Assembly: GCF_013122565.1 (NCBI RefSeq) | Contig: NZ_CP053258.1 | Source of the DNA: Escherichia coli | GTDB taxonomy: Bacteria > Pseudomonadota > Gammaproteobacteria > Enterobacterales > Enterobacteriaceae | DNA: 64,000 nt | Direction: 5' to 3' (one strand) | Shown: in pieces, positions 44,094-44,547 of the stretch | Layout of the letters: the number at the start of each line of letters is the position of its first letter | Numbering within the stretch: position 1 is the first letter of the stretch | Position numbers and translations under genes: made by a program | Notes under the pieces: generated by a model | Database searches by the model: none | Told to the model about the DNA's origin: nothing | The model's input: the letters and a program-made list of their open reading frames with translations, nothing else

Positions 44094-44124
44094 CTCGCTG
44101 ATTAAAATATCCAGGGAAGGAAAT

Positions 44125-44388
44125 ATGATCGATCTGGAAAACCAGGAACGGGAGATTATCAATTTAATGTTCAGCCAGCGTATTTCCTGGCTAGCCGCCG
44201 TGCGTATCAGGCATAAATTATCGCTTGCTGAAGTAAGTAAAATGTTAGGTATCTCGATTAATTCTCTAAAACAGATCGAAAAGACGGAACGGCTTAGCTC
44301 AAACATCAAAAGCAAAATGGCAGAAATTTATGGTTGTCCACCAGAGTTGCTGATATGCCCTTCCTGGATGACGGCTGAACATAAATGA
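44125..44388 (+). CDS. Small XRE-family HTH protein (87 aa), not present at this position in K-12
   Basis: GGAAGGA SD 4 nt upstream. HTH LSLAEVSKMLGISINSLKQIEKTER followed by ..IYGCPPELL. Starts 31 nt after the lplA stop on the same strand. The segment is AT-rich. Confidence 0.65.
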   Translation: MIDLENQEREIINLMFSQRISWLAAVRIRHKLSLAEVSKMLGISINSLKQIEKTERLSSNIKSKMAEIYGCPPELLICPSWMTAEHK

Positions 44389-44486
44389 ATAGATTCGTGA
44401 ATAGATACTTGAATGTATTTTATTTTCTATCCATATGAAAAATAATAGTAAATCTATAAATCAGTTGCTATTGATGAATAGATACT
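44386..44486 (+). repeat. Cluster of direct TGAATAGAT(ACT) repeats
   Basis: TGAATAGATtcg (44386-44397), TGAATAGATACT (44398-44409), TGAATgtATttT (44410-44421) and TGAATAGATACT (44475-44486). The first copy contains the stop codon of the HTH gene. Confidence 0.8.
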
Positions 44487-44514
44487 AAAAACCGGAGCAG
44501 TCCCCCACTCCGGC
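44487..44514 (-). terminator. deoD (deo operon) terminator
   Basis: Minus strand reads CCGGAG-tgggggactg-CTCCGG followed by TTTTT. Confidence 0.8.
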
Positions 44515-44547
44515 TTAACACGACAATCGCCTTTCAGCGAAACACAA

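Follow-up and report, generated by a model that had tools for sequence, protein, structure and literature searches.

HipH, the product of yjjJ in Escherichia coli K-12, is a monocistronic kinase of the HipA family with an N-terminal helix-turn-helix (HTH) (PMC8262856, PMC9948734, PMC11452175). It has been studied in K-12 and in uropathogenic E. coli (UPEC) as a toxin kinase or a DNase, with respect to persistence and cyclic di-GMP (c-di-GMP) (PMC9948734, PMC11452175). HipB, the 88-amino acid (aa) XRE-type antitoxin of HipA, was reported to rescue the toxicity of YjjJ (PMC9948734). In the E. coli DNA studied here (a stretch of 64,000 nucleotides of contig NZ_CP053258.1, hereafter called the window), the interval between lplA and deoD, where K-12 carries yjjJ, is only 454 bp long (44094-44547) and contains a gene for an 87-aa XRE-type HTH protein on the lplA strand. 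The reading that we favor, with a probability of about 0.7, is that hipH was replaced by an HTH gene made from a fragment of an antitoxin gene, and that this gene was weakly maintained for a long time and is now dispensable.

The K-12 yjjJ/hipH locus shares with the window the deoD-lplA slot, the leader, the start codon and the deoD terminator. Unlike K-12, however, the window holds an unrelated coding sequence on the opposite strand and no kinase; the coding sequence of the HipA-family kinase (Pfam HipA_C) is absent between deoD and lplA, and only the leader and the ATG of yjjJ are left. The HTH protein is not similar to YjjJ, including the N-terminal HTH region of HipH. An inverted copy of that region was considered as a source and rejected, as neither blastn nor blastp found similarity to yjjJ or YjjJ on either strand. 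HipB and the window protein have a similar size, the same XRE class and a thematic tie to a HipA-family toxin. Nonetheless, a HipB-like identity was rejected, as the window protein does not match NCBIfam NF007271 at E <= 0.01 (phage antitoxins do so weakly). Moreover, its best family is a different one, and no HipA-family kinase gene is adjacent, yjjJ being absent from the HTH allele.

A closer likeness is to antitoxins of the ParE/RelE type that combine a RelB-like N-terminus with a C-terminal XRE HTH (family phrog_7241; gp33 of Pmp14, gp290 of PPyecE_EH1910 and a protein of Klebsiella phage 3LV2017). Their HTH is homologous to that of the window protein, and the likeness covers the helix preceding the HTH (EVINIMF..SLLAAWRI...LS..EVA..LG...S.VSQ.E....LAEIY.C.PEQL). 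Unlike these antitoxins, the window gene comprises the C-terminal half only, has no ParE/RelE gene upstream and is fixed in the chromosome rather than carried on a mobile element, and its product has an extra tail of 9-10 residues, with a stop codon that comes from the hipH leader. The predicted five-helix fold is shared with small XRE regulators such as CylR2, C.BclI, C.AhdI, P22 c2 and the 434 Cro domains, the model fitting solved XRE regulators with a template modeling (TM) score of about 0.55-0.6 (query-normalised) and a root-mean-square deviation (rmsd) of 1.3-1.9 A over 53-60 residues. In contrast to these regulators, with which its sequence similarity is only generic, the window protein has an additional N-terminal helix and is not accompanied by restriction-modification, cytolysin or phage immunity genes.

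Antitoxin genes that stand alone (orphan or solo genes) are a general concept, as are anti-addiction modules of chromosomes. The window gene likewise seems to be derived from an antitoxin and has no cognate toxin beside it. Unlike orphan antitoxins, it lacks even the presumed toxin-binding half, and no sign of a neutralising role was found. RefSeq labels the open reading frame (ORF) "helix-turn-helix domain-containing protein" (WP_000566150.1 and variants); nothing was found on it in the hipH/yjjJ literature, nor under the RefSeq accession and guessed locus tags. It is an orphan antitoxin-derived HTH gene at a strain-variable locus, annotated but unstudied.

Results

Replacement of yjjJ/hipH between lplA and deoD

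A first-pass annotation of the window, made from its letters alone, had described a low-GC segment with a small HTH gene between lplA and deoD and had proposed that it replaces yjjJ, on the strength of the K-12 gene order. That order was given correctly: in K-12-type genomes a 1332-bp yjjJ lies on the deoD strand between deoD and lplA (in one such locus, L001, lplA occupies 655-1671, yjjJ 1672-3003 on the minus strand and deoD 3170-3889). The low-GC gap, the 87-aa ORF starting 31 nucleotides (nt) past the lplA stop codon and its Shine-Dalgarno-like site were likewise all found as described.

Alignment to K-12 and to a panel of E. coli genomes, which the annotation had recommended, set the boundaries of the replacement at 44094-44379 and showed that the allele is not unusual (4057 of the 5426 complete genomes). 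On the left, blastn homology to K-12 reaches 44092, the base before the end of the lplA stop codon. On the right it resumes exactly at the yjjJ start codon, where 44380 of the window corresponds to 3001 of L001. The intervening 44094-44379 gave no blastn similarity to K-12 or CFT073, and the junctions show neither repeats nor scars of insertion sequences (IS). The other 168 bp of the gap (44380-44547) consist of the 5' region of yjjJ and the deoD terminator; here the HTH and yjjJ allele classes share about 79% identity, versus 94-97% in the adjacent coding sequences.

yjjJ orthologues lie between deoD and lplA in Salmonella, Citrobacter and locus L017, and between deoD and smp in Erwinia. Because of this synteny across genera, and because the HTH allele retains the yjjJ ATG and leader repeats, yjjJ/hipH is the ancestral occupant and the HTH segment a derived replacement, so that the direction implied by the word "replaces" was right. 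GC in 200-nt windows is 0.33-0.40 inside the gap, versus 0.55-0.61 in the flanking genes; by part, it is 42% in the 286-bp replaced segment, 33% in the tail, 50.6% in the whole window and 53.8% in yjjJ. The low GC of the replaced segment relative to the window and to yjjJ, together with its lack of nucleotide or protein similarity to yjjJ, argues that it is of foreign origin.

Coordinates of the features of the locus are given in Table 1.

Table 1. Features of the lplA-deoD region, in window positions
Feature	Position	Strand	Basis or remark
lplA (lipoate-protein ligase A)	43077-44093	+	338-aa ORF; RefSeq annotation of L002, locus 99.8% identical
Low-GC (42%), apparently foreign segment of 286 bp, in place of the 1329-bp yjjJ/hipH coding sequence	44094-44379	.	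blastn, junctions, GC
Purine-rich Shine-Dalgarno-like GGGAAGGA, 5' of the HTH start codon	44114-44121	+	read from the sequence
XRE-type HTH gene, intact, 87 codons, RefSeq WP_000566150.1 type	44125-44388	+	ORF, Pfam, PHROG, hhalign, AlphaFold2
Relic yjjJ/hipH start codon, CAT on the + strand	44380-44382	-	blastn boundary, alignments
Relic hipH leader with tandem ATCTATTCA repeats, 12-nt period	44386-44418	-	exact at 44386-44394 and 44398-44406, degenerate at 44410-44418
Distal ATCTATTCA copy, immediately downstream of the deoD terminator	44475-44483	-	same place in yjjJ alleles of five genera
deoD intrinsic terminator, stem CCGGAG/CTCCGG then a T-run on the - strand	44486-44513	-	terminator scan, inverted repeat I7, K-12 conservation
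deoD (purine nucleoside phosphorylase), right flank	44548-45267	-	239-aa ORF; RefSeq annotation of L002

A terminator scan found no terminator-like site between lplA and the HTH ORF. As to a promoter of its own, the ORF has a single consensus-level site, which overlaps the ATG, and the number of such sites is no better than in shuffled sequences. A search of 43900-44750 against Rfam gave no structured RNA at E <= 1, and the ORF list contains no toxin ORF within 44094-44547. The 3' end of lplA (44037-44060, encoding DQEKELRE) and the 5' end of the HTH gene (44131-44154, encoding DLENQERE) form a 24-nt direct repeat of 75% identity, probably by chance.

Relationship of the 87-aa protein to phage and plasmid antitoxins

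Pfam HTH_3 (PF01381) matches residues 23-76 of the protein with 29.4 bits (gathering cut-off 23; E 8.3e-7), which places it in the XRE/Cro-C1 class. AlphaFold2 predicted an XRE/Cro-type helical bundle at a predicted local distance difference test (pLDDT) of 80, falling to 53 in the C-terminal tail; the modelled helices 22-29, 34-41, 45-54 and 59-69, plus an N-terminal one, would make up the five-helix XRE fold. The nearest solved structures by Foldseek were CylR2, C.BclI, P22 c2 and SinR, and phmmer against the PDB gave no significant homologue (best E 0.45).

Close homologues (>= 86% identity over the full length) were found only in Escherichia and Shigella (E. coli, E. marmotae, E. ruysiae and the cryptic clades). 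An exhaustive HMMER search, which covered 1.84 billion representative proteins, yielded no more than 31 matches at E <= 0.001: variants and fragments from Escherichia, a single diverged protein of 87 aa (P0199) and a few proteins of 95-129 aa; the weak matches were antitoxin-like proteins of about 100-130 aa. In phage and plasmid collections, tblastn found matches of 31-41% identity over roughly residues 3-84. Where the annotation was inspected, the matching genes encode "transcriptional regulators" of about 120 aa. In Pasteurella phage Pmp14 and a Leclercia plasmid, the gene immediately upstream of the match is annotated as a RelE/ParE toxin; phage PPyecE_EH1910 has the same arrangement, with an upstream partner annotated as a plasmid stabilization protein, and Klebsiella phage 3LV2017 has the same gene pair, unannotated. 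All three partners in Pmp14, PPyecE_EH1910 and the Leclercia plasmid contain Pfam ParE_toxin. The search for usual genomic partners, another suggestion of the first-pass annotation, thus led to ParE/RelE toxin genes directly upstream.

The best family of the window protein in PHROGs is phrog_7241 (E 3.4e-10), with residues 10-77 aligned to profile positions 54-121 of 122, and the second-best family is weaker by 10^4. P0199 gave the same family (E 1.2e-7) with the same residues aligned to the same positions. The phage protein, by comparison, matches phrog_7241 from end to end, and its neighbor belongs to phrog_1213, "RelE-like toxin". In viral contigs, the antitoxin ORF is 100 aa or longer at 34 of 35 loci, and at 33 of 35 a ParE/RelE-like ORF lies just upstream, figures that show consistency and not 33 independent events, as many of these loci are near-duplicates and were chosen by family patterns. 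When an alignment of the Escherichia and L022 proteins (L022 being the contig that carries P0199) was compared by hhalign with 14 antitoxins, query residues 5-77 matched template columns 62-134 of 136 (73 columns; probability 99.3%, E 1.1e-20).

Both ends of the ORF differ from the family. At the N-terminus, the RelB-like strand-helix and acidic linker of the antitoxins (about 45-60 aa) are missing, the ORF beginning at the linker. At the C-terminus, the phage proteins stop at window residue 77-78, and the last 9-10 residues (PSWMTAEHK) lie beyond the family. The junction supplies these residues, and the first three + strand bases of the first leader repeat form the stop codon TGA. The partial matches to phrog_7241 and in hhalign, together with the toxin-gene context of the relatives, point to an internal fragment of a ParE/RelE-associated antitoxin gene that would encode the DNA-binding domain only. 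The first-pass annotation had suggested a remnant of, or a replacement for, a toxin-antitoxin or phage-derived module. A remnant of the C-terminal HTH of a phage or plasmid ParE/RelE antitoxin agrees with the data, and a remnant of hipH or of a HipB-like gene does not, there being no match to YjjJ or HipB.

The gene directly upstream is lplA and not a ParE/RelE toxin gene; an adjacent toxin and a toxin-binding antitoxin, as in a functional type II toxin-antitoxin system, both appear to be lacking. The HTH gene is not a toxin-antitoxin system, because it is without the N-terminal half and without the toxin, the two defining features of the family. Since the presumed toxin-binding half is missing, toxin neutralisation by its product would not be expected.

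The promoters of related cassettes were also inspected. ATCTAATCA lies upstream of the toxin ORF in six loci (L013, L079, L083, L096, L108 and L109), and a seventh, L081, has an inverted TGATTAGAT at -100. Cassette promoters of the Pasteurellaceae type of ParE/RelE-XRE contain ATCTAATCA, GATTAGAT or AATTAGAT repeats and an ATAAGAT..ATCTTAT palindrome.

Repeats of the hipH leader

The AT-rich, repeat-bearing tail that the first-pass annotation had seen running into the deoD terminator proved to be a remnant of the hipH leader plus that terminator, whose stem arms lie at 44492-44497 and 44508-44513. On the sense strand of yjjJ, three tandem ATCTATTCA units with a 12-nt period end at the ATG, and a fourth lies past the deoD terminator; the leader has no obvious Shine-Dalgarno sequence. 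Alignments show that K-12, Salmonella, Citrobacter, L017 and Erwinia all share this arrangement immediately before the yjjJ ATG (L001 3004-3040 and about 3093-3107; in L016, L019, L017 and L021 just upstream of 3501). Over the 41 nt beside the ATG, the window and Salmonella/Citrobacter have about 90% identity, and over the flanking genes about 80-89%. The window keeps two exact units, one degenerate unit and the distal copy; in + strand form, the exact copies read TGAATAGAT at 44386, 44398 and 44475. Other Escherichia HTH alleles have lost one 12-nt unit, and the L022 copy has one degenerate unit left.

Since the ATCTATTCA array is kept across the genera that carry hipH, it appears to belong to hipH, and the copies in the HTH allele would be leftovers. 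We found no earlier description of it, and consider it a candidate operator or leader element of hipH. The 9-mer occurs 5 times in the window (0.31 expected). The two further exact ATCTATTCA sites, at 5303-5311 (-) and 20323-20331 (-), are in sequence that reads as non-coding; the one at 20323-20331 adjoins a terminator-like GC hairpin and so resembles the distal copy behind the deoD terminator. The likeness of the cassette promoters described above to the leader motif is a weak lead that may be due to chance, as such DNA is AT-rich.

Frequency of the two alleles

The full 454-bp segment is present in 4057 of 5426 complete E. coli genomes by megablast, and K-12 yjjJ in 1346-1348, including K-12, CFT073 and ST131. 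The two counts add up to about 5405 of 5426 and give no sign of genomes with both, although totals were compared here and not the overlap per genome. The few leftover genomes include other states, such as WB61 with an internally deleted yjjJ. The HTH allele is therefore the majority allele of E. coli, and K-12 belongs to the minority. The first-pass annotation had allowed for the case that K-12 and most strains carry the ORF at this site: most strains indeed do, but K-12 does not. About 75% of the complete genomes, O157:H7 included, have no hipH, so that conclusions drawn on HipH in K-12 and UPEC do not extend to those strains.

Several variants of the yjjJ allele were encountered. CFT073 has an IS200C insertion between yjjJ and deoD (L003, 3215-3673), WB61 retains an N-terminal remnant of yjjJ after an internal deletion (L012, 2449-2640), and L115 has a K-12-like yjjJ with an internal deletion. 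P0080, 80% identical to YjjJ, was tried as an outgroup and rejected, being a K-12 copy with an internal deletion. Two records titled Enterobacter hormaechei (B56, L004; B17-3, L006) contain an HTH gene 100% identical to that of the window (264 nt, 87 aa) and are probably mislabelled or contaminated.

Among Escherichia, the synonymous divergence (dS) of lplA is high and uneven (0.08-0.43) and uncoupled from HTH identity (window versus L007, L008, L010 and L024-L027), which suggests frequent recombination around the locus. The window and L027, for example, have identical HTH proteins, yet their lplA genes differ at 43 sites.

An orthologue outside Escherichia and the strength of selection

P0199 is encoded at 864-1127 of a 1371-bp contig (L022; Logan DRR526040, contig 81833) from one other enterobacterial genus. 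The lplA of this contig is 80% identical to that of E. coli in nucleotides and 89% in amino acids, about as distant as Salmonella and Citrobacter, and is about 78-80% identical to those of E. coli, Salmonella and Citrobacter alike. The sequence downstream of the HTH gene is the end of deoD, and REP-like elements lie between the two. P0199 and the window protein have 87 codons each, no indels and 36 identical residues of 87 (41%), including the structural core of the HTH. The two genes have the same orientation and the same junction, with the stop codon in the same leader repeat. Such a diverged copy with the same junction in another genus argues that the allele is old. The shared length, orientation and stop site and the absence of indels point to either one origin that predates the separation of those genera or an ancient transfer of the whole haplotype.

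Between the window and L022, the nonsynonymous divergence (dN) of the HTH gene is 0.51 and its dS 2.3 (saturated), or dN/dS of about 0.2; for lplA these values are 0.06, 1.4 and about 0.04. Within Escherichia, dN/dS over all pairs is 0.12-0.70 for the HTH gene versus 0.00-0.08 for lplA. The gene has thus been under purifying selection, but weakly so, with a past constraint of about 0.2-0.3 in dN/dS. When used as a query, P0199 found only itself. All loci from a scan of metagenomes were E. coli-like, and the six that were examined had 94-96% identity. A 57% match in a Shigella assembly (L011) was discarded, the assembly being full of frameshifts.

Repeated loss of the HTH gene

The copy in the window is intact, and its 57-mer of the sense allele is found exactly in 1384 complete genomes, including O157:H7. 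In 1686 complete genomes there is instead an exact match to a 57-mer in which codon Q50 is changed to TAG, and in 141 an exact match to an allele with a 1-nt deletion. At least 1827 of the 4057 carriers (at least 45%) therefore have a null allele, nonsense or frameshift; RefSeq flags both types as pseudogenes ("internal stop", "frameshifted"). Of the full-length copies in metagenomes, 20 of 42 are disrupted. Other lesions are present in Shigella flexneri (L009) and in L067, L068 and L075. The null alleles arose in several independent events, and their occurrence in many lineages suggests that the gene is dispensable in present-day E. coli.

Discussion

The proposed history starts from an ancestral locus with deoD, then hipH (yjjJ) in the same direction, and lplA convergent to both. 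Before the genus Escherichia arose, an ancestor would have exchanged its entire hipH coding sequence, between the lplA stop codon and a point just past the hipH ATG, for about 286 bp of low-GC DNA of a mobile element. The incoming DNA may have been an internal fragment of an antitoxin gene from a ParE/RelE-type cassette of temperate phages or plasmids, of which only the C-terminal XRE helix-turn-helix would have survived; the toxin gene, the RelB-like N-terminal half and the native stop codon would have been lost, and the ORF would have come to end at the TGA in the first leader repeat of the former hipH. The abandoned 5' region of hipH, with its ATCTATTCA repeats, and the deoD terminator would then make up the AT-rich tail. 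Transcription presumably occurs by read-through from ytjB-lplA, given that no terminator-like site follows lplA and the only promoter-like site overlaps the ATG. Translation from its own Shine-Dalgarno-like site would yield a small stand-alone protein of XRE fold, which may still bind DNA but would be incapable of neutralising a toxin. Weak purifying selection could account for its long retention, its selective value probably being small and dependent on the lineage.

Several points weigh against this reading. Co-transcription with lplA would follow from nothing more than the 31-nt spacing and the lack of a terminator-like site. The leader repeats are nearly perfect in the HTH alleles of E. 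coli, even though the spacer has diverged from that of K-12 beyond alignment; to regard the repeats purely as relics leaves these near-perfect copies unexplained. The start of the recognition helix, where bases are contacted, differs between the orthologues (SINS in one, TAEA in the other), which is odd for a regulator with a conserved target. The copy outside Escherichia lies on a single contig of one sequencing run and is a singleton in a collection of 15 billion proteins, so the dating "older than the genus" depends on a single observation, and an ancient horizontal transfer of the whole haplotype is an alternative to it. Lastly, E. albertii and E. fergusonii were absent from the comparison within Escherichia.

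An unlikely but serious competitor is that the ORF is a decaying antitoxin fragment without any role, a non-functional relic that is open in the window by chance. The frequency of null alleles (at least 1827 of 4057 carriers) and of disrupted metagenome copies (20 of 42) would fit such decay, as would a dN/dS several-fold above that of lplA, the loss of the toxin partner, the N-terminal half and the native 3' end, and the differing residues in the recognition helix. Neutral decay, however, would have destroyed the ORF in the time since the two orthologues diverged: at 41% identity and a saturated dS of 1.4-2.3, 87 codons persist without an indel at a dN/dS of about 0.2. dN/dS is also below 1 in every Escherichia pair, and the structural core residues of the HTH are conserved.

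It is improbable that the protein is instead a regulator tied to its neighbors, which would bind the TGAATAGAT (ATCTATTCA) array or other sites and control lplA/ytjB, the convergent deo operon or a residual hipH promoter, perhaps having taken over a DNA-binding task once performed by the N-terminal HTH of HipH. The gene follows lplA in the same orientation after 31 nt, no terminator separates the two, the ORF was retained over a long period, and the repeats beside it are nearly perfect in E. coli HTH alleles despite the diverged spacer. The promoters of the closest phage cassettes, moreover, have ATCTAATCA/ATTAGAT repeats, one base from the motif of the hipH leader. But this last likeness concerns DNA that is rich in AT, and the cassettes at the seven loci may be related and thus not independent cases. 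The array is also conserved in genera that have hipH and no HTH gene, hence it would be hipH's own, and it is almost gone beside the L022 orthologue. Null alleles are common while lplA and deoD are unchanged, strains of the yjjJ type manage lplA without the HTH gene, and the recognition helix is not conserved. The first two of these points also weaken the idea of an lplA-coupled regulator, which the first-pass annotation had raised. Least probable of all, to the point of being nearly negligible, is a role as an anti-addiction or immunity factor, in which the solo domain would repress the promoters of incoming ParE/RelE-XRE cassettes and so blunt addiction or defence. In favor, the DNA-binding domain of just these antitoxins is homologous to the protein, and cassettes of this family do occur on E. 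coli prophages. However, only 11 of 5426 genomes carry the E. coli prophage cassette, and its antitoxin is only 32% identical to the window protein, with different recognition-helix residues. Palindromes resembling operators vary between cassette subfamilies, and null alleles of the HTH gene are frequent. The difference between SINS and TAEA and the rarity of the prophage cassette thus argue against both a conserved specific target and an immunity function.

A bolder version, also a long shot, is that the hipH/HTH dimorphism is a very old, maintained polymorphism, in which the HTH protein was co-opted to recognise the ATCTATTCA array and acts as a trans-acting regulator or an immunity factor in strains without HipH. 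If true, this would tie the loss of a persistence or genotoxicity kinase to a specific DNA-binding protein that was gained at that very control region.

Under the replacement history that we prefer, the locus would be a case with exact breakpoints in which a fragment of a mobile toxin-antitoxin system overwrote a chromosomal toxin gene, giving a long-lived solo HTH gene that was then repeatedly lost. It is a common and fairly ordinary difference between strains, which has value for annotation and as a small evolutionary case and leaves general principles unchanged. The leader array, whose three ATCTATTCA units recur every 12 nt next to the hipH ATG and are strongly conserved between E. coli and Erwinia, provides a concrete candidate for a control element of hipH.

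A further difference between strains was noted beyond deoD. The deoD-deoB spacer (45268-45346) is 79 nt long in the window, L002 and L026, and 56 nt in loci of the K-12 type and in several others; what the longer spacer adds is a GC-rich insert resembling a palindromic repeat (ccctctccctgtgggagagggccggggtgaggg).

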